DNA from: Escherichia coli | GTDB taxonomy: Bacteria > Pseudomonadota > Gammaproteobacteria > Enterobacterales > Enterobacteriaceae | Direction: 5' to 3' (one strand) | Assembly: GCF_003334335.1 (NCBI RefSeq) | Contig: NZ_QOWQ01000027.1 | Length of the DNA: 64,000 nt | Shown: positions 24,418-56,944 of the stretch, piece after piece | How positions within the stretch are numbered: the first letter of the stretch is position 1 | How the letters are laid out: every line of letters begins with the position of its first letter | Made by a program: the position numbers and the translations under genes | The notes under the pieces: generated by a model | Database searches by the model: none | Told to the model about the DNA's origin: nothing | Seen by the model: the letters and a program-made list of their open reading frames with translations, nothing else

Positions 24418-24515
24418 AGCTTACATTTGTCATCAGTATCAACCACCGGGTAACCGGCGGTGATGGCTTTTTGACGAGCTACAGACAAAAATGCATTCGT
24501 CATTGATTAGCCCGG

Positions 24516-24689
24516 CTAGTTGTCGCTTTTGCCGTGACTGCTCTTACCACCTTTTTTACCTGCTTCAGATGCGCGCTGCGGGTCATTCTTGAAATTACCC
24601 CCGCTGTGCTGTCCACCTTTTTTACCTGCTTCTGATGCTCTTTCGCGGTCTTCTGCAAAATTGCCGGAACCGCCTCGATGGTTTGCCAT
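24516..24689 (-). CDS. ymdF: YmdF, small KGG-repeat stress-induced protein
   Basis: Start refined to ATG 24687-24689 (MANHRGGSGNFAEDRERASEAGKKGG...); 57 aa with repeated EAGKKGG motifs. Confidence 0.75.
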   Translation of the reverse strand: MANHRGGSGNFAEDRERASEAGKKGGQHSGGNFKNDPQRASEAGKKGGKSSHGKSDN

Positions 24690-25043
24690 TACTGACCTCC
24701 GTCTGGGTATAGACATCATATTGCATAGAATTAACGCGGCGTATGGCGGCTGCCATATTTTCGCTACGTGGGACTAAGCTTAGTGAACTGACGCGGGCAG
24801 ACCCGCGTTTGGTAATATCCTGCAACAGCTTCTTAGCGAGAATAGATATCATCTCCAATAATTATCCATAAGCCGCTCTTATGATTAAAAAAACGCGATG
24901 AGATAAAAATGTGTCATTTTGCGACAAAATTACGTGCTTGTGAAAGTTGTTATAAATCAAATAAGTGGTTGTGAAATTTGCACTCTGAAAAGGACGTCTT
25001 ATCTTTAAATAAGTGGTAGCGAATCGCTACGGAATAGAGATAA

Positions 25044-25658
<615 letters not shown>

Positions 25659-25678
25659 TCTTCAACAGGAGGATACGC

Positions 25679-25906
25679 ATGCCAACTCAAGAAGCGAAAG
25701 CTCATCACGTCGGTGAATGGGCATCTCTGCGCAATACGTCGCCGGAAATAGCCGAGGCCATTTTCGAAGTCGCCGGGTACGACGAAAAAATGGCGGAAAA
25801 GATTTGGGAAGAAGGTAGTGATGAAGTGTTAGTCAAAGCCTTTGCTAAGACCGATAAAGATTCGCTTTTTTGGGGCGAACAGACCATCGAACGTAAAAAC
25901 GTTTAA
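25679..25906 (+). CDS. yccJ: YccJ, small protein of unknown function
   Basis: 75 aa ORF immediately downstream of wrbA, recognised as YccJ. Confidence 0.85.
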
Positions 25907-25942
25907 CCAGCGACTCCCCGCTTCTCGCGGGGGAGTTTTCTG

Positions 25943-36590: not shown

Positions 36591-39335
36591 GTGAATTTAA
36601 CCCTGACCCGAAGACTCTGGATGGGCTTTGCCCTGATGGCGCTGTTAACCCTGACCAGTACCCTGGTGGGATGGTACAACCTGCGCTTTATCAGCCAGGT
36701 GGAAAAAGACAACACTCAGGCATTGATTCCTACCATGAATATGGCGCGCCAGTTGAGCGAAGCCAGCGCCTGGGAACTTTTCGCCGCGCAGAACCTGACC
36801 AGTGCCGATAACGAAAAGATGTGGCAGGCGCAGGGGCGAATGCTCACCGCACAAAGCCTGAAGATTAATGCGTTGCTGCAAGCGTTACGGGAACAAGGTT
36901 TTGATACCACCGCTATTGAACAACAGGAGCAGGAGATCTCCCGTTCGTTACGTCAGCAAGGGGAACTGGTGGGGCAGCGTTTGCAACTGCGCCAGCAACA
37001 ACAGCAACTCAGTCAGCAGATAGTCGCTGCCGCCGATGAGATCGCACGCCTGGCGCAAGGTCAGGCGAATAATGCGGCAACCTCCGCCGGAGCGACCCAG
37101 GCCGGGATTTACGATTTGATCGAACAACATCAGCGTCAGGCTGCTGAAAGTGCACTCGATCGGCTGATTGATATCGATCTTGAGTATGTTAACCAGATGA
37201 ATGAACTGCGCCTTAGCGCCCTGCGGGTGCAGCAAATGGTGATGAATCTGGGGCTGGAGCAGATCCAGAAAAATGCGCCAACGCTGGAAAAGCAGCTCAA
37301 TAATGCGGTGAAAATTCTGCAACGTCGGCAAATACGCATTGAAGATCCGGGTGTTCGTGCGCAGGTCGCAACAACGTTAACTACCGTTAGCCAATATAGC
37401 GATTTGCTGGCGCTGTATCAGCAGGACAGTGAAATCAGCAATCGCCTGCAAACTCTCGCCCAAAATAACATCGCCCAGTTCGCGCAGTTTAGTAGCGAAG
37501 TCAGTCAGCTGGTCGACACCATTGAGCTGCGTAATCAGCACGGACTGGCGCATCTGGAAAAAGCCAGTGCACGCGGGCAATACAGCCTGTTATTGCTGGG
37601 GATGGTTTCACTTTGCGCACTGATTCTGATCCTCTGGCGCGTGGTTTATCGCTCAGTCACGCGTCCACTTGCCGAACAAACGCAGGCGCTGCAACGGCTG
37701 CTGGATGGTGATATTGACTCCCCTTTCCCGGAAACCGCTGGCGTACGGGAGCTGGATACCATCGGGCGGCTGATGGATGCGTTTCGCAGCAGTGTTCATG
37801 CACTGAATCGCCACCGCGAACAGCTGGCGGCGCAGGTCAAAGCGCGTACAGCTGAATTGCAGGAACTGGTGATAGAACACCGACAGGCACGGGCGGAAGC
37901 AGAAAAAGCCAGCCAGGCAAAATCGGCGTTTCTGGCGGCGATGAGCCATGAGATCCGCACACCGCTGTACGGTATTCTCGGCACCGCACAGCTACTGGCA
38001 GATAACCCCGCACTTAACGCCCAGAATGATGATTTGCGGGCAATTACTGATTCTGGTGAATCGTTGCTGACCATCCTCAACGATATTCTCGATTATTCGG
38101 CTATCGAAGCAGGCGGCAAGAATGTTTCGGTCAGCGATGAACCCTTTGAACCGCGCCCGCTGCTGGAAAGTACCCTGCAATTAATGAGCGGACGGGTGAA
38201 AGGTCGCCCGATTCGCCTGGCAACGGCAATTGCCGATGATGTACCGTGCGCGTTAATGGGCGATCCACGACGTATTCGTCAGGTTATAACCAACCTGTTG
38301 AGCAACGCCCTGCGTTTTACTGACGAAGGGTACATTATCCTGCGTAGCCGCACTGATGGCGAGCAATGGCTGGTCGAAGTGGAAGACAGCGGCTGCGGTA
38401 TTGATCCCGCGAAACTGGCAGAAATCTTCCAGCCATTTGTGCAGGTAAGCGGCAAACGCGGCGGCACCGGGCTGGGGCTGACTATCAGTAGCCGTCTGGC
38501 CCAGGCGATGGGCGGCGAACTGAGCGCCACCAGCACGCCGGAGGTTGGAAGCTGTTTTTGTTTACGCTTGCCGTTACGTGTTGCCACGGCACCCGTGCCA
38601 AAAACAGCCAATCAGGCGGTGCGTCTGGACGGTTTACGTTTGCTGTTAATTGAAGATAACCCGCTAACCCAGCGAATTACCGTTGAGATGCTGAACACCA
38701 GTGGTGCGCAGATTGTTGCTGTTGGCAATGCCGCGCAGGCTTTAGAGACACTGCAAAATAGCGAACCGTTTGCTGCCGCACTGGTGGATTTTGATCTGCC
38801 GGATGTCGACGGCATTACGCTTGCCCGACAACTGGCACAGCAATATCCGTCGCTGGTTTTGATTGGCTTTAGCGCCCATGTCATTGACGAAACGCTGCGC
38901 CAGCGTACCAGTTCATTATTCCGCGGGATTATCCCTAAACCGGTGCCGCGTGAAGTGCTCGGTCAGTTACTGGCGCACTATCTCCAACTGCAAGACAATA
39001 CCGATCAATCGCTGGATGTATCGCAACTCAATGAAGATGCTCAGTTAATGGGGACGGAGAAGATCCACGAATGGCTGGTATTATTTACACAACATGCCCT
39101 GCCGCTTCTCGATGAAATCGACATTGCCCGCGCCAGTCAGGATAGCGAGAAAATAAAGCGTGCCGCGCATCAGCTAAAAAGCAGTTGCTCGAGTCTGGGA
39201 ATGCGTATCGCCAGCCAGCTATGCGCACAACTGGAGCAGCAGCCATTATCTGCCCCCCTTCCACACGAAGAAATTACACGCAGTGTTGCCGCTCTTGAAG
39301 CATGGTTGCATAAGAAAGACCTGAACGCGATTTGA
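36591..39335 (+). CDS. torS: TorS, hybrid sensor histidine kinase
   Basis: 914 aa ORF with HAMP, HisKA/HATPase, receiver and HPt regions; GTG start at 36591. Confidence 0.93.
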
Positions 39336-39406
39336 ATCAATATCAGCCAGTTAAGAACAACTAGAATAGTGGTATTTGGTATGCAACTTAACGGACTGGC
39401 AAAATC

Positions 39407-40480
39407 ATGGCAAAGAAAAAAAGAACCCGCTGGCAGCGGCGGCCAGGCACGACGGGCGGCAAATTACCGTGGAATGACTGGCGCAATGCCACGACCTGGC
39501 GTAAAGCGACGCAATTATTACTGTTGGCAATGAATATTTATATTGCCATCACGTTCTGGTATTGGGTGCGCTATTACGAAACGGCAAGTAGCACGACATT
39601 TGTCGCCAGACCGGGAGGTATCGAAGGCTGGCTACCGATTGCCGGTCTGATGAATCTGAAATATAGCCTTGCAACAGGTCAGTTACCGTCCGTCCACGCC
39701 GCCGCGATGCTGTTATTGGTCGCTTTTATCGTCATCAGTCTATTACTCAAAAAGGCCTTTTGCTCATGGTTATGCCCGGTTGGTACGCTTTCTGAATTAA
39801 TCGGCGCTCTCGGTAACAAACTATTTGGTCGGCAATGTGTCCTTCCCCGCTGGCTGGATATTCCTCTGCGCGGCGTAAAGTATTTGCTGTTGAGTTTTTT
39901 TCTCTATATCGCGTTATTGATGCCCGCTCAGGCGATTCACTATTTTATGTTGTCGCCCTACAGCGTGGTGATGGACGTTAAAATGCTCGATTTCTTTCGT
40001 CATATGGGGACCGCGACATTAATCAGCGTGACCGTTTTGCTGATTGCCAGCCTGTTTATTCGCCATGCCTGGTGTCGTTATCTTTGCCCATATGGCGCGC
40101 TGATGGGCGTGGTTTCGCTATTATCGCCGTTTAAGATTCGTCGCAATGCCGAAAGTTGTATCGACTGTGGCAAATGCGCAAAAAATTGCCCATCACGGAT
40201 CCCGGTCGATAAATTAATTCAGGTACGAACAGTGGAATGTACCGGCTGTATGACTTGCGTAGAGTCATGTCCGGTAGCCTCAACATTGACCTTTTCACTG
40301 CAAAAACCTGCGGCAAATAAAAAAGCCTTTGCGTTGTCTGGCTGGTTAATGACGCTACTGGTTCTGGGGATTATGTTTGCGGTGATTGGTTACGCAATGT
40401 ATGCGGGAGTATGGCAAAGCCCGGTGCCGGAGGAATTGTACCGACGCTTAATTCCACAAGCGCCAATGATTGGTCACTAA
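39407..40480 (+). CDS. yccM: YccM, predicted membrane 4Fe-4S ferredoxin-type protein
   Basis: 357 aa ORF with CxxCxxCxxxCP motifs and TM helices, recognised as YccM. Confidence 0.88.
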   Translation: MAKKKRTRWQRRPGTTGGKLPWNDWRNATTWRKATQLLLLAMNIYIAITFWYWVRYYETASSTTFVARPGGIEGWLPIAGLMNLKYSLATGQLPSVHAAAMLLLVAFIVISLLLKKAFCSWLCPVGTLSELIGALGNKLFGRQCVLPRWLDIPLRGVKYLLLSFFLYIALLMPAQAIHYFMLSPYSVVMDVKMLDFFRHMGTATLISVTVLLIASLFIRHAWCRYLCPYGALMGVVSLLSPFKIRRNAESCIDCGKCAKNCPSRIPVDKLIQVRTVECTGCMTCVESCPVASTLTFSLQKPAANKKAFALSGWLMTLLVLGIMFAVIGYAMYAGVWQSPVPEELYRRLIPQAPMIGH

Positions 40481-41308: not shown

Positions 41309-41593
41309 ATTTTACTTCCTTCATTTTGGGCCTTTCGGCAAACAGGGCTTTAATACAGAAACTACTTAGTGTTCAGGAGAGAGACTCAAAAGAAGGGGAT
41401 AATGCCTGATAATGAGAACTGCTTTAGTAAACTACTTTGTATGCTGTCTGTCTTTCAAACCGACGCAGCTATTAACGCATGATAATTGAGATTAAGCAAA
41501 TTTTATTTTAGCCGTCCGGCGGTCTTAAATATCGCTGGCTTTATTTTATTAACCCCGTATAGTGCAGCGCAGTATTTTCAGTAAGGAATTTGT

Positions 41594-41806
41594 TTGTCCC
41601 GTAAAATGACAGGAATTGTCAAAACCTTTGATCGCAAAAGCGGCAAAGGATTCATTATCCCCTCCGACGGTCGTAAAGAAGTTCAGGTCCATATTTCCGC
41701 ATTCACTCCCCGCGACGCAGAAGTGCTTATACCAGGATTACGTGTGGAATTTTGCCGCGTAAATGGCCTGCGAGGACCAACAGCGGCAAATGTTTATCTC
41801 TCTTAA
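41594..41806 (+). CDS. cspH: CspH, cold-shock-like protein
   Basis: 70 aa [24 protein letters not shown] recognised as CspH. Confidence 0.93.
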
Positions 41807-42247
41807 TATGACGCTGCTTGTTTAAAGCTGACTGGTTTTATTGGAATAGTGCAATAGTCAACATCATACATTATAACATCAGTTACTTTTCCACAAAGAA
41901 ACTAATCCATTTAAGCGAATATCTCTGCACCTAATAGTTACAAATGCCATTTAACAGCCAGTTATAGTACCACTTGAAACTATATTACCAACAATAATTA
42001 ATAGCTTTCGTAACAATTTCCTTATCTTTAATTTGTATTTTGCTAAGATTTATCTTATGCTCACAAGTCGTATTTCCAGAGGGGGATAGTTAACAATCTT
42101 ATATTTCCCTCTGCGCGCCTTTCCTACCCGCAGTATATAGTGCAAGCGGTATGAGGAAAGGGAGATTTCACAAGGATGTTATACTCAAAGTAGACAATCC
42201 TGATCTCAAGCGTACGTATTGTCCATGCGATGAATAAAGGAAAAGTT

Positions 42248-42553
42248 ATGAAACACAAGCTTTCTGCAATCCTTATGGCCTTCATGTTGACGACGCCAGC
42301 TGCGTTTGCTGCCCCTGAAGCAACAAACGGGACCGAGGCAACGACGGGTACTACTGGCACCACAACGACCACTACCGGCGCAACCACGACTGCTACTACC
42401 ACTGGTGGCGTGGCTGCTGGCGCTGTCGGCACGGCGACAGTTGTCGGTGTGGCAACGGCTGTTGGTGTGGCGACGTTGGCAGTTGTTGCAGCAAATGACA
42501 GTGGCGATGGCGGTTCTCATAACACCTCAACCACCACGTCCACTACACGCTAA
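42248..42553 (+). CDS. gfcA: GfcA, Thr-rich small protein, first gene of the group 4 capsule operon
   Basis: Start refined to ATG 42248 (MKHKLSAILMAF) with aagga SD; signal peptide plus Thr/Gly/Ala low-complexity region; 101 aa. Confidence 0.88.
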   Translation: MKHKLSAILMAFMLTTPAAFAAPEATNGTEATTGTTGTTTTTTGATTTATTTGGVAAGAVGTATVVGVATAVGVATLAVVAANDSGDGGSHNTSTTTSTTR

Positions 42554-42659
42554 TACCGCTTTAACGCGTCGAAATTAAAGTTAAATGATACCCGGTTGCG
42601 ATATTCGTACCGGGCTTTAGAGATTTGCATTTTTTTAATTAACCTTTCAAGGATTAAAG

Positions 42660-43304
42660 GTGCGCCCTCTTATTTTATCGATTTTCGCACTATTTCTTGC
42701 GGGATGTACGCACAGCCAGCAAAGTATGGTCGATACATTTCGCGCCAGCCTTTTCGATAATCAGGATATCACCGTAGCGGATCAGCAGATCCAGGCGTTG
42801 CCTTATTCCACTATGTATTTACGCCTTAATGAAGGGCAACGAATCTTTGTGGTACTGGGATATATAGAACAAGAACAAAGCAAATGGTTATCCCAGGATA
42901 ACGCCATGCTGGTTACCCACAATGGACGTCTTTTAAAAACCGTCAAACTTAATAATAATCTGCTGGAAGTGACAAATTCCGGGCAGGACCCTCTGCGTAA
43001 CGCGCTGGCAATAAAAGATGGCAGCCGCTGGACGCGCGATATTCTCTGGAGTGAAGACAACCATTTTCGCTCTGCGACCCTGAGTTCTACTTTTTCCTTT
43101 GCTGGATTAGAGACGCTGAATATTGCGGGTCGCAATGTGCTGTGTAATGTCTGGCAGGAAGAGGTGACTTCCACGCGGCCAGAAAAACAGTGGCAAAACA
43201 CATTCTGGGTCGATTCGGCTACTGGCCAGGTTCGTCAAAGTCGGCAAATGTTAGGCGCAGGGGTTATTCCCGTAGAAATGACGTTTCTTAAACCCGCACC
43301 ATGA
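42660..43304 (+). CDS. gfcB: GfcB lipoprotein
   Basis: 214 aa ORF with lipobox (LAGC), recognised as GfcB. Confidence 0.9.
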   Translation: MRPLILSIFALFLAGCTHSQQSMVDTFRASLFDNQDITVADQQIQALPYSTMYLRLNEGQRIFVVLGYIEQEQSKWLSQDNAMLVTHNGRLLKTVKLNNNLLEVTNSGQDPLRNALAIKDGSRWTRDILWSEDNHFRSATLSSTFSFAGLETLNIAGRNVLCNVWQEEVTSTRPEKQWQNTFWVDSATGQVRQSRQMLGAGVIPVEMTFLKPAP

Positions 43305-44047
43305 ATAAATTACAGTCGTATTTCATTGCCAGCGTACTTTACGTAATGACACCCCATGCCTTTGCGCAAGGAACGGTGACTATTTATCTGCCTGGCGAAC
43401 AACAGACACTTTCCGTTGGCCCCGTGGAAAATGTTGTCCAGTTGGTGACACAACCGCAACTGCGCGATCGCCTCTGGTGGCCTGGTGCCTTGCTGACCGA
43501 CTCTGCGGCGAAAGCTAAAGCGCTTAAAGACTACCAACATGTCATGGCACAGCTTGCTTCCTGGGAAGCAGAAGCTGACGACGATGTGGCGGCAACGATT
43601 AAATCCGTGCGCCAGCAGTTACTCAATCTCAATATCACTGGTCGCTTACCGGTCAAACTGGACCCTGATTTTGTACGAGTGGATGAGAACAGCAATCCCC
43701 CGTTGGTCGGGGACTATACGCTCTATACCGTACAGCGTCCGGTGACTATTACTCTGCTGGGTGCGGTTTCTGGGGCCGGGCAATTGCCCTGGCAGGCAGG
43801 CCGTAGCGTTACCGATTATCTGCAAGATCACCCCCGCCTTGCAGGCGCGGACAAGAATAACGTTATGGTGATTACGCCTGAGGGTGAGACTGTCGTCGCC
43901 CCTGTTGCCCTGTGGAATAAAAGACATGTGGAACCACCGCCTGGCAGCCAGCTTTGGTTGGGCTTTTCTGCGCATGTACTGCCCGAAAAATATGCTGATT
44001 TAAATGACCAGATTGTGTCTGTTTTAACGCAACGTGTTCCTGACTGA
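43301..44047 (+). CDS. gfcC: GfcC, periplasmic capsule-assembly protein
   Basis: 248 aa ORF overlapping the gfcB stop, recognised as GfcC. Confidence 0.9.
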
Positions 44048-46143
44048 TGAAGAAGAATTCTTATCTTTTAAGCTGCCTGGCCATTGCCGTCTCCAGTGCC
44101 TGTCATGCTGAAGTATTAACCTACCCGGATCCGCTGGGTTCGTCGCAATCAGACTTTGGCGGCACAGGATTGTTGCAGATGCCAAATGCGCGCATCGCAC
44201 CGGAAGGTGAATTCAGCGTCAACTACCGGGATAACGATCAATACCGGTTCTACTCCACCTCCGTGGCGCTGTTCCCATGGCTGGAAGGCACCATTCGTTA
44301 TACGGATGTGCGCACACGCAAATATAGCCAGTGGGAAGATTTCAGCGGCGATCAGTCATACAAAGACAAATCATTCGATTTTAAACTTCGCCTGTGGGAA
44401 GAAGGTTACTGGCTACCGCAAGTGGCGTTTGGTAAACGTGATATTGCTGGTACGGGTCTGTTTGACGGTGAGTATCTGGTGGCCAGCAAGCAAGCGGGGC
44501 CATTTGATTTCACCCTCGGGATGGCATGGGGCTACGCCGGTAATGCGGGCAATATTACCAACCCGTTTTGCCGGGTGAGCGATAAATATTGTCATCGCGC
44601 AGAGTCTCACGATGCGGGCGATATCAGCTTTAGCGATATCTTTCGTGGCCCGGCTTCCATCTTTGGCGGCATTGAGTATCAAACGCCGTGGAATCCCCTG
44701 CGTCTGAAACTCGAATACGATGGAAACAATTACCAGAATGATTTCGCTGGCAAACTGCCTCAGGCAAGCCATTTCAACGTCGGCGCAGTTTATCGCGCTG
44801 CCAGCTGGGCAGATCTCAACCTGAGTTATGAACGCGGTAACACGTTGATGTTTGGCTTCACGTTACGGACCAATTTCAACGATCTGCGCCCTGCCCTGCG
44901 CGATACGCCAAAACCGGCATATCAACCTGCGCCTGAATCTGAAGGATTGCAGTACACCACGGTAGCAAACCAACTTACCGCCCTGAAGTATAACGCGGGC
45001 TTTGACGCGCCAGAAATTCAGCTACGCGATAAGACACTGTATATGTCTGGTCAGCAATACAAATACCGTGACTCTCGTGAAGCGGTCGATCGTGCCAACC
45101 GGATTCTGGTGAATAACCTGCCGCAAGGCGTTGAGAAGATTAGCGTGACGCAAAAGCGCGAGCATATGGCGATGGTGACTACCGAAACCGACGTAGCCAG
45201 CCTGCGCAAACAGCTGGCAGGTACAGCGCCTGGTCAATCAGAGCCACTGCAACAACAACGTGTTGAAGCTGAAGATCTTTCTGCCTTTGGTCGGGGCTAC
45301 CGTATTCGTGAAGATCGCTTTAGCTACTCTTTCAACCCAACACTTTCACAGTCGCTGGGCGGCCCGGAAGATTTCTATATGTTCCAGCTGGGGCTGATGT
45401 CCAGTGCCCGCTACTGGTTTACCGACCACCTGCTGCTTGATGGCGGTATTTTCACCAATATTTACAACAACTACGACAAGTTTAAGTCTTCGCTGTTGCC
45501 CGCGGACTCTACCCTGCCCCGCGTGCGCACGCATATCCGTGACTACGTTCGCAATGACGTTTATCTCAACAACTTGCAGGCGAACTATTTTGCTGACTTA
45601 GGCAATGGTTTCTATGGCCAGGTGTATGGCGGTTATCTGGAAACGATGTACGCCGGTGTCGGTTCCGAGCTGCTTTATCGCCCGCTAGATGCCTGCTGGG
45701 CGCTGGGTGTGGACGTTAACTACGTGAAGCAACGTGACTGGGACAACATGATGCGTTTCACCGATTATTCCACGCCAACAGGTTTCGTGACGGCTTACTG
45801 GAACCCGCCGACGCTCAATGGCGTACTGATGAAACTTAGCGTTGGGCAATATCTGGCAAAAGATAAAGGCGCAACGATCGACGTCGCCAAACGCTTTGAC
45901 AGCGGCGTGGCGGTAGGGGTATGGGCGGCAATCAGTAACGTATCTAAAGATGACTACGGCGAAGGCGGCTTTAGTAAAGGTTTTTATATCTCGATTCCAT
46001 TCGACTTGATGACCATTGGACCTAACCGCAACCGCGCGGTGGTTTCGTGGACACCATTGACGCGTGATGGTGGACAAATGCTGTCACGCAAATACCAGCT
46101 CTATCCAATGACGGCAGAGCGAGAAGTACCGGTTGGACAATAA
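44047..46143 (+). CDS. gfcD: GfcD, outer-membrane beta-barrel lipoprotein
   Basis: 698 aa ORF with signal peptide, recognised as GfcD. Confidence 0.9.
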
Positions 46144-46188
46144 CCTGACGTAATTCATAACATTACATTGACTGATAAATATAAACCA

Positions 46189-47328
46189 ATGAAAAAGAAC
46201 ATTTTTAAGTTTTCGGTACTGACATTGGCTGTTCTGTCTTTGACAGCATGTACCCTTGTTCCTGGTCAGAATTTATCGACCAGTAACAAGGATGTCATTG
46301 AACTACCTGACAATCAGTATGACCTGGACAAAATGGTCAATATCTATCCCGTCACGCCAGGATTGATTGATCAGTTGCGCGCCAAACCGATTATGTCGCA
46401 GGCTAACCCGGAGCTGGAGCAGCAAATCGCAAACTATGAATATCGTATCGGGATTGGTGATGTGTTGATGGTTACGGTCTGGGATCACCCGGAACTAACC
46501 ACCCCCGCAGGGCAATACCGTAGCGCCAGTGATACCGGCAACTGGGTTAACGCCGATGGTGCGATTTTCTACCCCTATATTGGTCGCCTGAAAGTGGCCG
46601 GGAAAACACTTACCCAGGTACGCAACGAGATTACAGCGCGTCTCGATTCAGTCATTGAAAGCCCGCAAGTCGATGTCAGCGTCGCGGCGTTCCGATCGCA
46701 AAAAGCGTACGTCACCGGCGAAGTCAGCAAATCGGGTCAGCAGCCGATTACCAATATTCCTCTGACCATCATGGATGCGATTAACGCCGCGGGCGGTCTG
46801 ACCGCAGATGCAGACTGGCGCAACGTGGTGCTCACCCAGAATGGCGTAAAGACCAAAGTGAACCTCTATGCGCTGATGCAGCGTGGCGACTTGCGCCAGA
46901 ACAAACTGCTGCACCCGGGCGATATTTTATTTATTCCGCGCAACGATGATCTGAAAGTCTTCGTGATGGGTGAAGTGGGTAAACAGAGCACGCTGAAAAT
47001 GGACCGCAGCGGTATGACCCTGGCGGAAGCGCTGGGTAACGCTGAGGGTATGAATCAGGATGTCGCTGATGCGACGGGGATTTTTGTTATTCGTGCAACG
47101 CAAAACAAGCAGAATGGCAAAATCGCCAATATTTATCAGCTGAATGCGAAGGACGCATCGGCAATGATACTCGGAACGGAATTCCAGCTTGAACCTTACG
47201 ACATTGTTTATGTCACTACCGCGCCGCTGGCTCGTTGGAACCGTGTGATTTCTCTGCTGGTACCGACGATTTCCGGGGTGCATGACCTGACAGAGACTTC
47301 ACGGTGGATTCAAACATGGCCCAACTAA
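46189..47328 (+). CDS. gfcE: GfcE, Wza-like outer-membrane polysaccharide export protein
   Basis: Start refined to ATG 46189 ([21 protein letters not shown] lipoprotein signal); 379 aa. Confidence 0.9.
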
Positions 47329-47762
47329 AATTTAACTCAATCCTGGTGGTTTGTACCGGCAACATTTGCCGTTCGCCCATTGGCGAGCGCTTGCTGCGTA
47401 AACGTCTGCCGGGCGTAAAAGTCAAATCGGCAGGTGTTCATGGTCTGGTAAAACACCCTGCAGATGCGACAGCGGCAGATGTTGCCGCTAATCATGGCGT
47501 ATCTCTTGAAGGACATGCCGGACGTAAGCTCACTGCTGAGATGGCACGAAATTACGATCTGATTCTGGCAATGGAGTCGGAACATATTGCTCAGGTTACC
47601 GCAATTGCTCCCGAGGTCCGCGGGAAGACAATGCTGTTTGGGCAATGGCTGGAACAGAAAGAGATCCCGGATCCCTATCGTAAAAGTCAGGACGCATTTG
47701 AACATGTCTACGGTATGTTGGAGCGCGCCAGTCAGGAATGGGCGAAGCGCCTCAGCCGGTAA
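47316..47762 (+). CDS. etp: Etp, low-molecular-weight protein-tyrosine phosphatase
   Basis: Start refined to ATG 47316 ([23 protein letters not shown]5R active site); 148 aa. Confidence 0.92.
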
Positions 47763-47781
47763 TTTGAGTTTATAAAATACG

Positions 47782-49962
47782 ATGACAACTAAAAATATGA
47801 ATACGCCACCAGGCAGCACTCAGGAAAATGAGATCGATCTGCTTCGTCTGGTCGGCGAGTTATGGGATCACCGTAAGTTTATTATCAGCGTGACCGCGTT
47901 ATTCACGCTGATCGCTGTCGCTTACTCGCTGTTAAGCACACCAATTTATCAGGCAGATACTCTGGTCCAGGTTGAGCAAAAACAGGGCAACGCCATTCTC
48001 AGCGGCCTGAGCGATATGATCCCTAACTCATCGCCCGAGTCTGCACCGGAGATCCAACTGCTGCAATCGCGCATGATTCTCGGTAAAACCATTGCTGAAC
48101 TGAATCTGCGCGACATAGTTGAGCAGAAGTATTTTCCGATTGTGGGTCGCGGCTGGGCGAGATTAACCAAAGAAAAACCAGGTGAGCTGGCGATCAGCTG
48201 GATGCATATTCCACAACTGAATGGTCAGGATCAGCAACTGACACTCACGGTTGGGGAAAACGGCCACTATACACTGGAAGGTGAAGAGTTCACCGTCAAT
48301 GGTATGGTCGGCCAGCGTCTGGAAAAAGATGGCGTTGCGCTGACTATCGCGGACATTAAGGCCAAACCAGGAACACAGTTTGTCCTGAGCCAGCGTACCG
48401 AACTGGAAGCGATTAACGCATTGCAGGAAACCTTTACCGTTAGCGAACGCAGTAAAGAAAGCGGGATGCTGGAACTTACCATGACTGGTGATGATCCCCA
48501 GTTGATTACTCGTATTCTGAACAGCATCGCTAACAACTATTTGCAACAGAATATCGCTCGCCAGGCGGCGCAGGATTCACAAAGCCTTGAATTCTTACAG
48601 CGCCAGTTACCTGAAGTGCGCAGCGAGCTGGACCAAGCGGAAGAAAAACTCAACGTTTATCGCCAGCAGCGCGATTCGGTTGACCTTAACCTGGAAGCCA
48701 AAGCCGTTCTTGAGCAGATTGTGAACGTTGATAATCAACTCAATGAGCTGACCTTCCGCGAGGCAGAGATCTCCCAGCTGTATAAGAAAGATCACCCAAC
48801 TTATCGTGCGCTGCTGGAAAAACGCCAGACGCTGGAGCAAGAACGCAAACGCCTGAATAAGCGGGTATCGGCAATGCCTTCCACCCAACAGGAAGTGTTG
48901 CGTTTAAGTCGTGACGTAGAAGCGGGCCGTGCGGTATATCTGCAATTACTTAACCGCCAGCAGGAGTTGAGTATTTCGAAATCCAGTGCCATTGGTAACG
49001 TGCGGATTATCGACCCGGCAGTCACTCAGCCGCAGCCAGTGAAACCGAAAAAAGCGTTGAACGTGGTGCTTGGTTTTATTCTTGGCCTGTTTATTTCTGT
49101 GGGTGCCGTGCTGGCGCGTGCGATGTTGCGTCGTGGTGTAGAAGCCCCGGAACAACTGGAAGAGCACGGCATCAGCGTTTATGCCACTATCCCAATGTCC
49201 GAGTGGCTGGATAAACGCACCCGTCTGCGTAAGAAAAATTTATTTTCTAATCAGCAGCGCCATCGTACTAAAAATATCCCCTTCCTGGCGGTGGATAACC
49301 CGGCGGATTCTGCTGTGGAAGCCGTACGTGCGCTACGAACCAGTCTGCATTTCGCTATGATGGAGACGGAGAATAACATTCTAATGATCACCGGTGCGAC
49401 GCCAGACAGTGGTAAAACGTTTGTCAGTTCAACTCTGGCAGCGGTGATCGCCCAGTCCGATCAAAAAGTGTTATTTATTGATGCCGACTTACGCCGTGGT
49501 TATTCGCATAACCTGTTTACCGTGAGTAATGAACATGGCTTGTCGGAATATCTGGCAGGTAAAGATGAGCTCAACAAAGTGATCCAGCATTTTGGCAAAG
49601 GAGGCTTTGATGTGATTACTCGCGGTCAGGTGCCACCTAACCCGTCTGAACTGCTGATGCGCGATCGGATGCGTCAATTACTGGAATGGGCGAACGACCA
49701 TTACGATCTGGTGATTGTCGATACGCCGCCGATGCTGGCGGTGAGTGATGCCGCGGTCGTGGGGCGTTCTGTTGGCACCAGCCTGCTGGTTGCGCGTTTT
49801 GGCTTGAACACCGCCAAAGAGGTGAGTTTGTCAATGCAGCGTCTGGAACAGGCAGGCGTCAATATTAAAGGCGCTATCCTCAATGGTGTGATTAAACGCG
49901 CCAGCACCGCTTACAGTTACGGCTATAACTATTACGGTTATAGTTACTCCGAGAAAGAGTAA
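47782..49962 (+). CDS. etk: Etk, BY-kinase (Wzc-like protein-tyrosine kinase)
   Basis: 726 aa ORF with Walker A (GATPDSGKT) and a C-terminal Tyr cluster (YSYGYNYYGYSY). Confidence 0.93.
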   Translation: MTTKNMNTPPGSTQENEIDLLRLVGELWDHRKFIISVTALFTLIAVAYSLLSTPIYQADTLVQVEQKQGNAILSGLSDMIPNSSPESAPEIQLLQSRMILGKTIAELNLRDIVEQKYFPIVGRGWARLTKEKPGELAISWMHIPQLNGQDQQLTLTVGENGHYTLEGEEFTVNGMVGQRLEKDGVALTIADIKAKPGTQFVLSQRTELEAINALQETFTVSERSKESGMLELTMTGDDPQLITRILNSIANNYLQQNIARQAAQDSQSLEFLQRQLPEVRSELDQAEEKLNVYRQQRDSVDLNLEAKAVLEQIVNVDNQLNELTFREAEISQLYKKDHPTYRALLEKRQTLEQERKRLNKRVSAMPSTQQEVLRLSRDVEAGRAVYLQLLNRQQELSISKSSAIGNVRIIDPAVTQPQPVKPKKALNVVLGFILGLFISVGAVLARAMLRRGVEAPEQLEEHGISVYATIPMSEWLDKRTRLRKKNLFSNQQRHRTKNIPFLAVDNPADSAVEAVRALRTSLHFAMMETENNILMITGATPDSGKTFVSSTLAAVIAQSDQKVLFIDADLRRGYSHNLFTVSNEHGLSEYLAGKDELNKVIQHFGKGGFDVITRGQVPPNPSELLMRDRMRQLLEWANDHYDLVIVDTPPMLAVSDAAVVGRSVGTSLLVARFGLNTAKEVSLSMQRLEQAGVNIKGAILNGVIKRASTAYSYGYNYYGYSYSEKE

Positions 49963-49972
49963 AACTGAAAGT

Positions 49973-50007
49973 GGCCGGATGCGGCGTGAACGCCTTTTCC
50001 GGTCTAC
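49973..50007. repeat. REP element between etk and appA
   Basis: ggccggatgcggcgtgaacgccttttccggtctac. Confidence 0.7.
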
Positions 50008-50041
50008 GCATTAGACAGTTCTTCGTTTGTCATCAGCCTCA

Positions 50042-50071
50042 GAGCATTCAGGTAACTGAATGCTCTTTTTT
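50042..50071 (+). terminator. Rho-independent terminator (gagcattcag-gtaa-ctgaatgctc followed by T6), probably ending the gfc-etp-etk transcript
   Basis: Perfect 10-bp inverted repeat followed by tttttt on the plus strand. Confidence 0.7.
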
Positions 50072-50076
50072 ATGCA

Positions 50077-51375
50077 TTACAAACTGCACGCCGGTATGCG
50101 TGCTTCATTCACGATTTGCGTAAAACCTGCCAACGAACACATGCCCTGCGCATTTCGCTCTTCACATCCTGCCAGGGTCAGTTTCACCTCTCCGGGCGGC
50201 GTATTTAATGACAGCGGCGTTTTATCACGCATCTGCTGTAAAGTCTGGAAGACCAGCGAAACCTGAATCCACTGGCTGTTATCGCTTAGCCGACGCCAGC
50301 GTTCAAACACCAGTTCACCACCTGGCGGCGTGTTATCCGGCTGACCGGGAAGCGTCCAGTTGAGCTCCAGTGCGCCGCCGAGATTTGCCAGATTAGTATC
50401 GTGTCCGGCGATAAACAGCACTGAAGTGGGTAATGTCACACCATACGCCTGTTTTTGCGGTGGATGGGGCGTCAACGCTGTCTTGATCAAATCTAATAAC
50501 GGGGTGGCGCGGCTGCGGGCAACCTCTGGCGTGCGTTGTAGCAAATAAAATTGCGCGTTATGCAAACTTAGCAAGGTGTTCCACTGGTGTGAATCGGTGA
50601 TCCTTCCCCACCCCGGCTCCGGCATTCCCTGTGCTTGTTGCAGGAGAAATATCTCCGTCAGCATTGATGCGAGGCTTACCGCACCGGTTAATGAGACATT
50701 GTCGGCGCTCACCTTGAGTTCCGATGGTAATGCCTGCGTTAATGAACAGCTTTCGTCCTGTTTCTCACGTTTAAGGCACAAGTTTGATTGCGGAAAATTA
50801 AGCACCCGTTCCAGTTCGCGAAACGCCGTTTGCCGATGCCCGGTAAAGTCAGCAATTGACCCTCCTGCCCTGCTGAGGATCGCGTCAGTCACGTTCGCGT
50901 TATCCAGTTGGCAAACGCCAGTTTTTAGAGGATTAAATAACGGATCGGGACTGGACGTATCTGCCTGGGTATGTACGGTTATTGCACAGTCAGGTGCCAG
51001 CCCGGCGGCGAAGGCTTCGCCTGTTTTACGGGTACGCTCGTCGACATCAGCAATAATCGCGACCTGACCAGACTGCGGGCAGCCCTTTTTCGCCAGCAAT
51101 CCGTCGGCTACCAGACGCTGGCGTTGGTAATGTCCGAGATAGGCGATTAGCTCACCACCGCGCGGTGTCAGCCAACCCAGTTTTACCGGCCAGGTTGGCC
51201 ATGCGTCTGGGGTGACATCCTGCATCAGTTGCGTGGCCTTGGTTGGAGCACGCACACCATGACGACTGACAATCACCACACTTTCCAGCTTCAGCTCCGG
51301 CTCACTCTGAGCGAATGCAGATTGCGGGGTTAACGGAATCAGAAGAGATAAAAATGGGATTAAGATCGCTTTCAT
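50077..51375 (-). CDS. appA: AppA, periplasmic phytase / acid phosphatase (histidine acid phosphatase)
   Basis: Start refined to ATG 51373-51375 (MKAILIPFLSLLIPLTPQSAFA); RHGVRAP motif; 432 aa. Confidence 0.95.
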   Translation of the reverse strand: MKAILIPFLSLLIPLTPQSAFAQSEPELKLESVVIVSRHGVRAPTKATQLMQDVTPDAWPTWPVKLGWLTPRGGELIAYLGHYQRQRLVADGLLAKKGCPQSGQVAIIADVDERTRKTGEAFAAGLAPDCAITVHTQADTSSPDPLFNPLKTGVCQLDNANVTDAILSRAGGSIADFTGHRQTAFRELERVLNFPQSNLCLKREKQDESCSLTQALPSELKVSADNVSLTGAVSLASMLTEIFLLQQAQGMPEPGWGRITDSHQWNTLLSLHNAQFYLLQRTPEVARSRATPLLDLIKTALTPHPPQKQAYGVTLPTSVLFIAGHDTNLANLGGALELNWTLPGQPDNTPPGGELVFERWRRLSDNSQWIQVSLVFQTLQQMRDKTPLSLNTPPGEVKLTLAGCEERNAQGMCSLAGFTQIVNEARIPACSL

Positions 51376-51413
51376 CGATATGTTTCCGCTTTTCATATCT
51401 GACATTATTGATT

Positions 51414-51449
51414 GCCTGATGCGATGCTAATGCGCCGCATCAGGCCTAC
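51414..51449. repeat. REP element between appA and appX
   Basis: gcctgatgcgatgctaatgcgccgcatcaggcctac. Confidence 0.7.
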
Positions 51450-51454
51450 GTTCG

Positions 51455-51547
51455 TTAACTTTTCAGACGCGGGTCCAGCCATACCAACACAAGGGTGGAG
51501 AGCGAACACATCAACAAAATGCCGACGAACCAAAGTAAATACCACAT
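51455..51547 (-). CDS. appX: AppX, 30-aa small membrane protein of the cytochrome bd-II operon; absent from the ORF track
   Basis: Translated by hand from the reverse complement: MWYLLWFVGILLMCSLSTLVLVWLDPRLKS, between appB and appA. Confidence 0.8.
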   Translation of the reverse strand: MWYLLWFVGILLMCSLSTLVLVWLDPRLKS

Positions 51548-51559
51548 TGTTTCTGCTCC

Positions 51560-52696
51560 TTAGTACAACTCGTTTTCGTTACGGCGGAGAGTTTCTGTTG
51601 TCATGCGCCCCCACATTTTGTAGTAGCTCCAGAGAGTGTAGAGCAACACAATGGGCAAAAATATCAGCACGATTACCAACATAATGCTCAGCGTCAGCTG
51701 ACTGGAAGTACTGTCCCACAACGTCAGGCTGGAGATCGGACTCACGCTTGACGGCATGACAAAGGGGAACAGCGTGATGCCTGCCGTGAAAATCACGCCA
51801 AATTGCATCAATGATGCCATCAAAAATCCCCAACCCGGGCGACCACGATAAATCGCCATCACCGTCAGCAATGGGCAGAAGAATCCCAGCAGCGGGAAGA
51901 TCCACAAAACGGGCGACTCGACAAAATTATTCATCCAGGCACCAGGTAGCACTGCCACCAGTTTCATTAACGGATTGGAAGGACCGTTAGCATCCTGGGC
52001 GAGCAGTACAAAGCCATCAATACCGACCCACAGCCAGTAACCCGCCAGCAAAAAGCACAGCATCACCAACAGTGCAGCGCGTTTGGTCGCCAGCTGTGAA
52101 CGCAGATGAATCACACCAACAGTTTTCAGTTGTAACCAGACGCCACCTTGCAAAATCACCATCCCAAGGCTGAGCAATCCGCACAATAAAGGGAATGGCG
52201 TCAGCAGTTGCCAGAAGCTGCCGAGATACTCCACGCGTAATTGCGGTGTGAAGGCAAACGGCACGCCGAGCAACAAGTTGCCGAAGGCGATACCGAAGAC
52301 TACCGGCGGCACCAGACTGCCGATGACCAGACCGGCGTCCCACATTTTACGCCAGCGTGCATCGGCGATTTTTCCGCGATAATCAAAGGCCAGCGGGCGG
52401 AAGAACAGTGAGCACAGCACCAGGATCATCGCCACATAAAAGCCGGAAAACGCCGCTGCATACACTCTGGGCCAGGCGGCAAATAATGCCCCACCAGCGA
52501 GGATCAACCAGACCTGGTTGCCTTCCCAGTGTGCACCAACGCTGTTTATCACTATCCGGCGTTCATCATCATTACGCGCCACCAGCGGCAGCAGACAGCC
52601 GATCCCCATGTCAAATCCGTCGGAGATCATAAAGACCACCAGGATCACGCCAATCAGCAGCCACCAGATGAAGCGCAATGTTTCATAATCAAACAT
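51560..52696 (-). CDS. appB: AppB, cytochrome bd-II oxidase subunit II
   Basis: 378 aa multi-TM ORF recognised as AppB. Confidence 0.95.
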
Positions 52697-52707
52697 GATT
52701 TTCTCCT

Positions 52708-54252
52708 TTACCCCTGTTGCTGCGTCGGTTGTTCACTCTGCATCGCGCTCGGCCCCAGACGGGCATATTTCTGCATCAGGTAGACTTCGGCGATTAAGAA
52801 CAGGGTGTAAAGCCCTACGATCATGATCAGTGAGAAAGCCAGTTGTCCTGTGGTTAAAGCGGAGTGCGCGGAGTATGTCGGTAAGATGTCCTGTATCGCC
52901 CACGGCTGACGACCAAACTCGGTCATAAACCACCCGGCTTCAATCGCAATCCACGGCAACGGCAAACTCCAGAGCGCCATTTTCAGCACCCAGCGATGCT
53001 GGTCGATTTTGCCACGCAGCGTCTGGACAAGCGCAATCAGCATCACCAGTAGCAGCAGGGAACCACAGCCCACCATGATGCGGAAACTCCAGAATACCGG
53101 CGCAACCTGAGGTATCGCGCCACGCATCGCCGCCTGGTACTGTGCGGCTGTGACATGATTCATATCCGGCGCATAGCGGGAGAGCAACATGCCGTAGCCC
53201 AGGTCACCTTCCAGTCCCCGGAATGCCTGCAACACATGCGGCTCACGATTGCCTTGCGATATTTCCTGCATTAACAGCCAGGCCATACGTCCGCGTTGCA
53301 AGCGTGGGTAGGTTTCAGCCATCAAATTCTTCAGACCCGGCACGGGTTTATCTAATGAGTGAGTGGCGAGGATCCCTAGCAGCGCGGGAATTTTGAGGGC
53401 AAAGGCGTTACGCTCTTGATCCTGTTCCGGCCAGGCAACCACATGGAACGGTGCAGGTGCAGGTTCCGTTTGCCACTCCCCTTCCATCGCCGCCAGTTTT
53501 ACCGGTTGTACTTGCGCGACTTCATACGCAGAACTGTCTCCGAGTTGCAGGGTACCGATAATCGCCAGAGTACCGAAGACGGAACCGATGGCAAACGAGC
53601 GTAATGCGACATCGCGCTCCCGTCCGCGCAGTAAATACCAGGCGCTGATCGCCATAATAAACATGGCCCCGGTCACGTAGCCCGCCATTACGGTGTGCAC
53701 AAATTTCACCTGGCTGACCGGATTAAAGACCAGCTCGCTGAAGCTGGTCATCTCCATACGCAGGGTGTCGATATCAAAATGCGCACCGGTCGGGTATTGC
53801 ATCCAACCGTTGGCATTCAATATCCACAACGCAGAGAGATTTGAACCGAACGCCACCAGCCACGTCACCAGCAGGTGCTGGTATTTATTCAGCCGTTGCC
53901 AGCCGAAGAAGAACAGCCCGACAAAGGTGGATTCGAGGAAGAAGGCCATTAATGCTTCCATCGCCAGCGGTGCGCCAAAAATATCGCCCACATAGTTGGA
54001 ATAGAATGACCAGTTAGTACCAAACTGAAACTCCATGGTCAGGCCGGTAGCCACGCCAAGAGCAAAATTGATACCGAAGAGCTTACCCCAGAAGCGCGTC
54101 ATATCGCGGTAGATTGTTTTGCCGGTGACCACGTAAATGGTTTCCATAATAGCCAGCAAAAAAATCAGCCCCAGGGTAAGGGGTACAAATAAAAAGTGAT
54201 ACAGCGCGGTCAGAGCAAACTGCCAGCGCGATAAATCAATGACATCCCACAT
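52708..54252 (-). CDS. appC: AppC, cytochrome bd-II oxidase subunit I
   Basis: Start refined to ATG 54250-54252 ([20 protein letters not shown]); 514 aa. Confidence 0.95.
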
Positions 54253-54385
54253 GCGCACTCCTGTAGGCGAAGAGAGAAAAATAACCCGATAATGGTAGAT
54301 CTCCCTCTTTATCCTGAAACTCTACGACCAGAGGTATTCGCCGATTGCGATATTCATAAGACTGAAAGCGATACTTACCGTCTTT

Positions 54386-55243
54386 TTACGTCGGTGCAGC
54401 TTCCGCCAGCCACTGACATACCTCGCTAAGCCGCTGCGCAGAGTCGACCAAATCTTCTGGCGCTGCCAGCACCACTTCCGGTATTGGGCAGATTTCATAA
54501 CTTTCCAGTAACGGGCCTTTTAAGGTGTCCGTACAGCGTAAATGCCAGACATGGCGTAACCCCGTGGCGTTGATATAGCTCTCGCCATAGCCAATGGTAC
54601 GAATCTGAATATTTCCCGGCCCACAGAGACGTGAGAGAAAAAGCCGATCAGCCTCGCTGATGGGTAATTGCGTCAGATTAATGCTGTGCGGCTGCGCGTC
54701 GGGGTTACGTACATGTGCCAGTAACTCATGCGCCAACGGTAGGCCATTCATCAGGCCATCAATGGGCGGCGGTAACAGCGAATCTGTCGGCAAGAGATTT
54801 TGCGTTGCCGCCTGCCACAACGCCAGCGGCGCGCAGCCAGCCTCCAGTTTGTCCTCCAGCAACTTTTCGCCGCGACGTCTGCGCACCCGCCATAATCCGC
54901 AGAAGATCGCCTCCTGTATTTCACTTTCACTGTCGTCAGCCTGCTGAATGCGCACTGACACTTCCCCTTCCCCGAGAAGCGTATTGATAAAGTGACGATC
55001 GTCGGCGTTGAGATTTAACAGATCGACTGCCAGCACCTCGCCCAACGGCGGTTGGCGTTCGCTTAGTTGATGTTGTAACTCGTTTAACAGCGCAATCACC
55101 TGCGGGCTGTGAGCACATTGCTCCAGGGCCGCCATACTCGGTTCATCATTCACCTGACAGGTGATCGGCAGTGGATTCATGCTGAAACTGTCATCGTTCG
55201 GTTGCGTTCCTGGCCCCAGCAGATGGAAAAAAGTTTCGCTCAT
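54386..55243 (-). CDS. hyaF: HyaF, hydrogenase-1 operon protein
   Basis: Start refined to ATG 55241-55243 ([18 protein letters not shown]); 285 aa. Confidence 0.9.
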
Positions 55244-55638
55244 GAGGCACGCTCCTGCTGCGGTTCGACAAGCCCGCGCATCAGGTTTATCAGTTCCGCC
55301 CACGGGTGAATACCATTCAGCACGCCGCGATAGTTTCCGCCGGTAAACACTAAAGTGGCAGGAAAGCGAAAGACGCCAAAGCGATCGCCGATGGCTTCGC
55401 TCTGCTCAAGGTCAGCAATCGCCACCTGCCATGTATAGTCGGGAAACTCGCGCAGTAATTCGCCAATCATTACCGGATTATCGCTGACCTCTGGCGTGCG
55501 TTTCGGGTCACTGCTTAATAACACCACGCCGTCTGGCGCTTGCGTAAGCCAGTCGTCAAGACGGGATTCACTGACTGGCGTCCAGCCGCGCGCCAGCATT
55601 CGTTGCCACAACGCATCAAATGGCGTGTCGTTGCTCAT
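55240..55638 (-). CDS. hyaE: HyaE, hydrogenase-1 operon protein (chaperone-like)
   Basis: 132 aa ORF overlapping neighbours by 4 nt, recognised as HyaE. Confidence 0.9.
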
Positions 55639-56222
55639 CCCTGCTCCTCCTGTGTCATCCGGTACTGGCGCAAGCGAACGCCTTCGTAATTTTCCATCGA
55701 CAGACAGTCATAATTGAGACAGCGCGATTCATTAGCCGGTTGCGGCACAATTCCCCACGCAGCAAGCTGCGCCAGCGCCGCCTGTTCCGCAGCGGGCAGT
55801 TGCTCCCGTGCCAGTTCGCTCAGGCTACCGCCGTAGTCGTCGAGCATTGCGGGTTGCAGACCGACGAGGGCAATATGTGCTGGCAGATGTCCGCGGATAT
55901 CCGCCAGCGCCAACACTTCGGAGAAACTGTTCTGATGCAGGCTCATTTTCTTCGCGCTGAGATAAGCCGGAATGCGTTCTCCGGCATAGGTTCGCAGCGT
56001 TCCAGGTTCCAGCCCGTAGTCAATGGCATCGAGAATCAACAGATGGCTGGCGCTTTCGACATACCCCAGCAAGTTCAGTCCCTGAGTACCGCCATCGACA
56101 ATCTCCACATACTCGGGCCAGTGGTAATGGGCATACAGCCGTTCCGCCACCCGCACGCCGAAGCCTTCATCGGCCCACAGCAGGTTGCCCAGCCCCATGA
56201 CCACCACGCGTTGCTCGCTCAT
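55635..56222 (-). CDS. hyaD: HyaD, hydrogenase-1 maturation endopeptidase
   Basis: 195 aa ORF recognised as HyaD. Confidence 0.92.
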
Positions 56223-56926
56223 GAACGCTCCTTGTTACTTATTTTGCCAAATTTGTGGCTACGGTAGCCGTTGACCATGGTGGAGATCACCGTGTCGTCG
56301 GACATGATGTCTTCACGCAGCGCCATGTAGACATGACCGATCACAAACGCGCCAATCAGCCACATCCCCAGCCGATGCCAGCTGTGAATGTCCATTGAGT
56401 TGCCACCCGTCCAGTAGAAAAATTCCACCACATAACGGAACGGCGCAAAAATAGCGTACTGGCTGTGTTCGCTGTACAGCGCAAAACCAGTGATGATCAT
56501 AAAGACCGACATCAGGAAATAGCCGAACATCGCCGCCTGGGCGATGGGATTATGGCCTATATCGGCACTCGGACGTTTTGCCAGAAACAGATACCAGCGG
56601 ATTTCATACCACACGCCCTGCCACCAGCTTTTACGCCATACCGGCACGATAAACAGCTCGCGGGAGTATCGATTGCCAACAAAAGCCCAGTAGATCCGCA
56701 TCAGCAAAACCACGGTAAAAACCATCCCGGCGCTGAAGTGAATTAACCTGATGTAGCCCATATAGAACAGATACGTCGCCTCGCCGCTGACGGAAGGTAG
56801 CGGCTTGCCGATAAAGTATCCGGTGACCATCAACACCGCCATGCATAACACCGTCAACCAGTGCCAGATGCGCACTGGCGCTTCAAAGACATAGTGGCTG
56901 ACAACGTTGTCGCTTTTCTGTTGCAT
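56219..56926 (-). CDS. hyaC: HyaC, hydrogenase-1 b-type cytochrome subunit
   Basis: 235 aa multi-TM ORF recognised as HyaC. Confidence 0.92.
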
Positions 56927-56944
56927 GATGATTCTCCTTCGCTG

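Follow-up and report, generated by a model that had tools for sequence, protein, structure and literature searches.

An IS-free cspH-gfcA spacer upstream of a complete gfc operon in Escherichia coli, compared with the IS1D allele of K-12

Does an uninterrupted region upstream of the group 4 capsule operon, gfcABCDE-etp-etk, indicate that an Escherichia coli strain uses this operon? Peleg and co-workers reportedly found in 2005 that K-12 possesses the operon, with no expression owing to an IS1 element at the promoter region. The DNA analyzed here, called the window, is a stretch of 64,000 nucleotides from an E. coli genome (assembly GCF_003334335.1, contig NZ_QOWQ01000027.1). A sequence-only reading of the window had claimed that no IS1 lies between cspH and gfcA, that all seven genes of the operon are intact, and that the strain may consequently express the capsule export machinery. 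It placed the IS1 of K-12 in this spacer and proposed an alignment with K-12 as a check.

The spacer and the operon in the window

The spacer between cspH and gfcA has a GC content of 35%, compared to 51% for the whole window (Table 1). The stop codon of cspH ends at position 41806 and the ATG codon of gfcA is at 42248. A second in-frame ATG at 42230 lengthens the mechanical gfcA open reading frame (ORF); position 42248 is the start annotated in K-12 and in other genomes. A repeat scan, blastn, and alignments with K-12 and EPEC all showed that the gfc upstream region of the window is uninterrupted and contains no mobile DNA. The terminal repeat of IS1 has 0 matches in the whole window with up to three mismatches allowed, and blastn of the window with the complete K-12 IS1D gave chance matches of 12-22 nt only. 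There is no ORF of more than 38 codons in the spacer. The description of a spacer of about 440 bp with neither a transposase ORF nor IS terminal repeats is therefore accurate, and no IS1 was found in the spacer by either the repeat scan or blastn. The notion of 'more than chance' is hardly applicable to an absence, for which the relevant base rate is the IS-free majority of the species.

The genes gfcA, gfcB, gfcC, gfcD, gfcE, etp and etk are all on the plus strand, occupy positions 42248-49962, and are flanked by cspH and appA. This layout matches the annotations of K-12, STEC388 and EPEC. None of the seven ORFs has an internal stop, their lengths are those of K-12 and EPEC E2348/69, and the encoded proteins are 96.0-100% identical to those of EPEC. 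The genes are thus intact, as had been claimed. GfcE, Etp and Etk, which constitute the module of an outer membrane polysaccharide export protein (OPX), a phosphatase and a BY-kinase, score above the curated NCBIfam cut-offs. GfcA to GfcD have no NCBIfam model and were identified by their identity to the annotated K-12 proteins.

Table 1. Features of the cspH-gfcA spacer, the gfc operon and the end of the window, with the positions of insertions found in other genomes given in window coordinates
Feature	Position	Strand	Remarks
cspH, 70 aa, co-directional upstream neighbor	41594-41806	+	Identical to K-12 CspH; NCBIfam CspH equivalog 176 bits, cut-off 141
cspH-gfcA spacer	41807-42247	+	441 bp, IS-free; ancestral regulatory region of the gfc operon; same length in EPEC E2348/69 and O157:H7
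Variable AT-rich distal (cspH-proximal) part	41807-42042	.	49-nt bins 76-96% identical in E. coli lineages, 51-71% in E. albertii; GC 31-32%
Conserved gfcA-proximal part	42043-42247	+	All IS events mapped in other genomes lie between 42043 and 42273
Inverted repeat, 12-pair stem, 13-nt loop, no T-tract after it	42077-42113	+	-16.4 kcal/mol, z = -2.2; nearly invariant in alignments
Candidate extended -10, TGtTATACT (TGTTATACT)	42177-42185	+	63 nt upstream of gfcA ATG; predicted from sequence
Invariant 74-nt leader with ribosome-binding site and first 7 gfcA codons	42196-42269	+	Longest invariant run in the six-way alignment
Empty K-12 IS1D target, CGTATTGTC	42215-42223	.	Single copy in window; K-12 and Br_178_kylling carry identical IS1D with 9-bp duplication
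gfcA, 101 aa, Thr-rich inner membrane protein	42248-42553	+	Intact; identical to K-12; 96% to EPEC
gfcB, 214 aa, lipoprotein	42660-43304	+	Intact; identical to K-12; 99.1% to EPEC
gfcC, 248 aa	43301-44047	+	Intact; identical to K-12; 98.4% to EPEC
gfcD, 698 aa, YjbH-domain outer membrane protein	44047-46143	+	Intact; identical to K-12; 99.3% to EPEC
gfcE, 379 aa, OPX protein	46189-47328	+	Identical to K-12 and EPEC; PRK15078 703 bits, cut-off 333
etp, 148 aa, low-molecular-weight phosphotyrosine phosphatase	47316-47762	+	Identical to K-12 and EPEC; PRK11391 334 bits, cut-off 247
etk, 726 aa, BY-kinase	47782-49962	+	Identical to K-12; 99.7% to EPEC; PRK09841 1596 bits, cut-off 1248
appA, downstream neighbor	50077-51405	-	
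YkgJ-family ORF	60506-60856	+	
YadA-like trimeric autotransporter ORF, 487 aa	61774-63237	-	Looks Eib-like
DUF4376 ORF	63596-63916	-	
Insertion in PK6: IS5-like ISKpn26	42043-42047		
Insertion in E2386: IS1	42046-42054		
Insertion in 23713: IS1A	42049		With deletion to 42534
Insertion in 33-6: IS3 family	42083-42087		
Insertion in H9Ecoli: IS1	42084-42091		
Insertion in YZ_2_2: IS3	42141-42143		
Insertion in 1EC213: divergent IS1	42193-42200		
Insertion in K-12 and Br_178_kylling (Brazil): IS1D	42215-42223		100% identical in both; same duplication, hence same event
Insertion in 23CRST009: IS1A	42216		With deletion to 49712, into etk
Insertion in GDSC2BY4G: IS1A	42221-42229		Opposite orientation to IS1D
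Insertion in EEC_W5: IS1A	42264-42273		Inside gfcA

Apart from an island at its end, the window corresponds to positions 1031580-1092771 of K-12 MG1655, with which it is colinear in the reverse orientation (1092771-1031580) at 99.5-99.9% identity. The MG1655 record contains IS1D, an element of 768 bp with the genes insA4/insB4, at 1049778-1050545, between gfcA (b0987) and cspH (b0989). The position given for the K-12 element was therefore right, and the proposed alignment maps it to a nine-base target in the window. The two K-12 alignment blocks overlap by these nine bases, 42215-42223 (CGTATTGTC), which are duplicated around IS1D in K-12 and occur once in the window. Neither the 768-bp IS1 with its terminal inverted repeats nor the 9-bp duplication that characterize the K-12 allele is present in the window.

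The element and its duplication are the only structural difference between the window and K-12 at the gfc locus (b0981-b0989); CspH and the flanking genes are the same in both. From 42215 to 51992 (9778 bases) there is a single mismatch to K-12, at the intergenic position 42557, and the seven proteins consequently equal those of K-12. The 2.5 kb upstream of the IS1D site contain 8 mismatches. In K-12, the distance from IS1D to the gfcA ATG downstream of it is 24 nt plus the duplication. The insertion leaves gfcA with 24 nt of leader, including the ribosome-binding site, and cuts it from its native upstream DNA.

Divergence from K-12 over positions 1-60410 is mosaic. The 2-kb bins of 8000-15999 contain 135 mismatches and those of 36000-39999 contain 47, compared to 7 mismatches in 16000-35999 and 2 in 42000-59999. 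The pattern suggests recombination tracts in a backbone like that of K-12. Two genes elsewhere in the window differ from their K-12 counterparts in reading frame. The efeU gene (10585-11424, minus strand) is an uninterrupted frame of 279 codons. It contains a T at 11310 that is missing from K-12, in which efeU is annotated as a frameshifted pseudogene; the EfeUOB iron transporter is probably intact in the source strain. At 7712, in the 5' region of phoH, the window lacks a base that K-12 has at position 1085059, 67 nt into its annotated phoH. The longest phoH ORF, 6716-7693 on the minus strand, has 325 codons compared to 354 in K-12, and the N-terminal extension annotated in K-12 is out of frame here. 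The window ceases to be colinear with K-12 at 43 bp beyond serT, the gene of tRNA-Ser(UGA) at 60280-60367. The remaining stretch, 60411-64000, is an island or a prophage end; among 5426 complete E. coli genomes, just 11 contain at least 80% of it.

Conservation of the spacer and insertions in other genomes

The spacer was examined in a six-way alignment of the window, three other E. coli lineages, a cryptic Escherichia clade and E. albertii. It consists of a variable part next to cspH and a conserved part next to gfcA. Across the bins covering 42003-42247, the other E. coli lineages are 92-100% identical to the window, the cryptic clade is 82-100% identical and E. albertii 76-100%. The leader at 42196-42269 is invariant even though the identity of E. 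albertii over the whole locus is no more than about 80%. The K-12 IS1D target lies inside this leader.

A strict consensus scan of the plus strand of the spacer revealed no strong sigma-70 promoter. The sequence TGTTATACT at 42177-42185 contains the sole -10-like hexamer in the conserved part that has 5/6 matches and an upstream TG. Its -35 is poor, and it is invariant in all six sequences, including that of E. albertii. It is plausible as an extended -10 and is the strongest of the promoter candidates, in which case the 5' untranslated region would be about 55 nt long. A native promoter and the strongly conserved leader would then both be accommodated in the gfcA-proximal ~200 bp. All promoter candidates are upstream of 42215, so that IS1D uncouples every one of them from gfcA in K-12.

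Few other elements can be recognized in the spacer. The inverted repeat at 42077-42113 was not called by the terminator scan, which detected no intrinsic terminator between cspH and gfcA. The leader region (42192-42260, z ~0) and the beginning of the spacer (41800-41870) fold no better than shuffled sequences. A search against Rfam found no family in the spacer; the only matches were a sub-threshold one upstream of cspG, resembling the cspA thermoregulator, and a chance match to a miRNA. A candidate RfaH ops/JUMPStart element at 42143-42154 (AGCGGTATGAGG) was rejected, as it has only 6/8 matches to the ops core GGCGGTAG and varies between lineages.

An ORF of 28 codons, 42151-42237, ends 10 nt before gfcA and was rejected as a gene. 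Both substitutions in it among five E. coli lineages are synonymous, and E. albertii has 4 synonymous changes versus 1 non-synonymous. The ORF has no Shine-Dalgarno sequence, and in Escherichia sp. MOD1-EC7003 it has lost its start codon and has a stop at codon 5. Since the ORF is broken in the cryptic clade and the downstream 74 nt are invariant at every codon position, the constraint on this region appears to be at the nucleotide level.

The conserved part of the spacer is a recurrent target of mobile elements in other genomes. At least 11 independent events, involving IS1 and elements of the IS3 and IS5 families, were mapped to 42043-42273 (~230 bp) in wild isolates, whereas the site is empty in the window. 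An extra insertion was seen in 5 of the best 25 matches to a 25-kb stretch of the window, and all four that were checked fall in the 231 bp of 42043-42273. Operon decay was observed in IS-bearing strains, in the form of gfcD frameshifts, a deletion from gfcB to gfcD, deleted or disrupted gfcA, and a deletion running into etk. The decay in several of these strains fits inactivation of the operon.

STEC388 carries IS1A in the AT-rich spacer between cspG and cspH (equivalent to about 41310-41590 of the window; STEC388 locus 11167-11864), and IS insertions thus occur on both sides of cspH. In the cspH-gfcA spacer of E. coli B REL606, 23 bp of the conserved proximal region are deleted, corresponding to 42046-42068. 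The deletion overlaps three of the mapped IS targets (42043-42047, 42046-42054 and 42049).

A similar IS hot spot is found upstream of bglGFB (PMC11043490, PMC5493358). The likeness consists in recurrent independent insertion of IS1, IS3-family and IS5-family elements in a short AT-rich upstream region. However, the insertions at bgl activate a silent operon, whereas the K-12 gfc insertion is reported to be silencing and several gfc insertions are accompanied by decay. The comparison concerns the other genomes and not the window.

The 74-nt leader might be an undescribed cis-regulatory element, for instance a protein or small-RNA site, and the recurrent IS1, IS3 and IS5 hits in it and in the ~150 bp next to it might result from selection to switch off or rewire the capsule machinery. 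This idea is tentative and we regard it as rather doubtful. If it were true, IS1D of K-12 would exemplify a phase-like polymorphism of the population at large, a property of the species-wide locus and not of the window.

Expression of the operon

Transcription from a promoter in the spacer would proceed through all seven genes, which makes the locus structurally competent for expression. Expression and capsule formation would depend on regulation and on the O-antigen cluster elsewhere in the genome. This (rfb) cluster, the source of the capsule polymer, lies outside the window.

The gfc locus of EPEC O127:H6 E2348/69 (ymcDCBA-yccZ-etp-etk; Peleg et al. 2005; Thomassin et al. 2013, PMC3853201) provides a direct comparison. 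It has the same arrangement of cspH, a 441-bp spacer, gfcABCDE-etp-etk and appA, it contains no IS, and its proximal spacer and leader are almost identical to those of the window. The two spacers differ by about 20 substitutions, most of which are in the cspH-proximal half and 6 of which are in the proximal 180 bp. In E2348/69 the capsule has been demonstrated to require the operon, and a fragment consisting of the EPEC spacer and gfcA restored the capsule to a gfcA deletion mutant (PMC3853201). Primer gfcA5 of that study matches positions 41807-41830 of the window with 1 mismatch; the complementing fragment was therefore the EPEC counterpart of exactly this spacer, together with gfcA. The complementation supports the presence of a promoter within the 441 bp, although read-through from the vector is not formally excluded (PMC3853201). 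Expression and capsule have been demonstrated in E2348/69; the O127 antigen and the LEE regulators of that strain are beyond what the window can show.

EHEC O157:H7 (sampled in strain YB14-1) also has an IS-free 441-bp spacer and an intact beginning of gfcA and gfcB. Its sequence is 100% identical to the window over the 101 bp around the K-12 target and about 94% identical over the larger region 41780-42280 (a 501-nt query). In EHEC EDL933 the gfcA transcript is ~30-fold less abundant than in EPEC, and no capsule is formed in N-minimal medium (PMC3853201). An IS-free spacer thus does not mean an expressed operon. An O26 EHEC was likewise capsule-negative (PMC10932389).

It is consequently a serious possibility, to which we give somewhat less than even odds, that the operon of the source strain is IS-free and nevertheless silent or capsule-negative under ordinary conditions, so that the absence of IS1 has no phenotype. 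Repression of the AT-rich DNA, a missing EPEC activator or the lack of a suitable O-antigen could each be responsible. The EHEC precedent speaks for this explanation, as do the low GC content of the spacer (31-35%), its weak sigma-70 matches, the substitutions relative to EPEC and the location of the O-antigen cluster outside the window. On the other hand, the proximal promoter and leader region is nearly identical to that of EPEC. Furthermore, the leader and the intact genes are under strong purifying selection throughout the genus, which points to use of the operon under some conditions. The sequence-only reading was thus correct in that the IS1 is missing from the K-12 site and the genes are intact, but expression of the capsule machinery is not implied by the sequence, as the equally intact, IS-free EHEC locus demonstrates. 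The gfc locus of the window is structurally competent, and its expression would be conditional.

The effect of IS1D in K-12 is itself less simple than it seems. Passages in two papers (PMC2516531, citing Peleg et al. 2005; PMC12428005) state that IS1 is present in the operon promoter of K-12 but missing from that of pathogenic strains, and consider the operon unexpressed in K-12. The claim that the K-12 element is thought to silence the operon therefore reflects the literature. However, etk mutants of K-12 have polymyxin and heat-shock phenotypes despite the IS1, for which the authors suggested a cryptic promoter or a positive effect of IS1 (PMC2516531). These phenotypes require some expression, and IS1 is therefore not a clean on/off switch.

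An extension of this argument is that IS1 does not silence the operon but rewires it, by an outward promoter of IS1D or by internal promoters for the distal genes, in which case the window and K-12 would differ in regulation and not in an on/off state. An RpoD promoter, TGGAGA-18-TACACT, was listed for gfcA of K-12 by genomic SELEX (PMC3946193). This sequence is located inside the end of IS1D, 25 nt from the tip, and faces gfcA. Such an outward promoter might explain why some etk expression is reported in K-12. In addition, 80 bp of DNA upstream of etp, described as its native promoter, have served for the expression of Etp (PMC3366997). These data and the etk phenotypes agree with rewiring. 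Nevertheless, the conclusion given in the passage of PMC2516531 that cites Peleg 2005 is that the K-12 operon is not expressed in LB. Furthermore, insertions in wild isolates are often accompanied by operon decay, which fits loss of function better than activation. We therefore consider rewiring unlikely.

Age and frequency of the empty site

The state of the locus was surveyed in 5426 complete E. coli genomes. The region from cspH to gfcA was found as one place in 3536 of them, with insertions of up to ~1 kb tolerated. The gfcA end of the spacer is missing in ~1700 of the 5426 genomes, roughly a third; in those sampled, cspH abuts appA and the operon is thus absent. This absence is consistent with reports that UPEC and EAEC lack the capsule. 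In 3195 of 3611 genomes, nothing interrupts the 101 bp around the K-12 target. The larger region 42031-42269 is uninterrupted in 3076 of 3698 genomes (83%) and interrupted in 622 (~17%). The K-12-type junction between IS1 and gfcA occurs in 466 genomes, and many of the sampled entries are evidently laboratory derivatives of K-12.

The empty, single-copy target is common to EPEC of phylogroup B2, O157:H7, strain B REL606, the divergent WL297, Escherichia sp. MOD1-EC7003 of the cryptic clade, and E. albertii. This distribution shows that the empty state is ancestral. The K-12 state, with IS1D inserted at 42215-42223, is derived and restricted to its lineage. GfcB relatives are also encoded in the more distant Cedecea, Citrobacter and a metagenome-assembled genome (MAG), where no similarity to the spacer is detectable.

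The window is most closely related to ordinary phylogroup-A-like isolates of animal, food and human origin. Positions 41807-42247 are best described, with a probability of about 0.9, as the ancestral, uninterrupted cspH-gfcA region of an ordinary phylogroup-A-like E. coli with a locus closely resembling that of K-12, upstream of a complete gfc operon. That a K-12-like ancestor carried IS1D and later lost it by precise excision, restoring the promoter, would accord with the nearly K-12 sequence downstream of the site (1 mismatch in 9778 bp) and with the occurrence of the same IS1D allele in a wild isolate (Br_178_kylling, 100% identical element, same duplication), but it is highly improbable: precise excision of IS1 is very rare relative to insertion, the target is present in exactly one copy of 9 bp with no scar, as in every other lineage and E. 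albertii, and the spacer is IS-free in many close relatives of the window too. Parsimony therefore favors a site that was never occupied, and the source strain never acquired the IS1D insertion.

The IS-free promoter region described here is the common wild-type state, and its contrast with K-12 restates what has been published about K-12 and other E. coli. Being ancestral and in the majority, it does not distinguish the source strain, for which the default allele of the species is of little consequence. For annotation, the locus means that the strain could have a group 4 capsule, provided that it produces an O-antigen and that the operon is induced. What the present comparison adds is the recurrent targeting of the gfcA-proximal 230 bp by IS elements and the location of the K-12 target inside an invariant leader of 74 nt. 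The hot spot and the conserved leader together may be of interest for the regulation of the capsule and for the choice of targets by IS elements.
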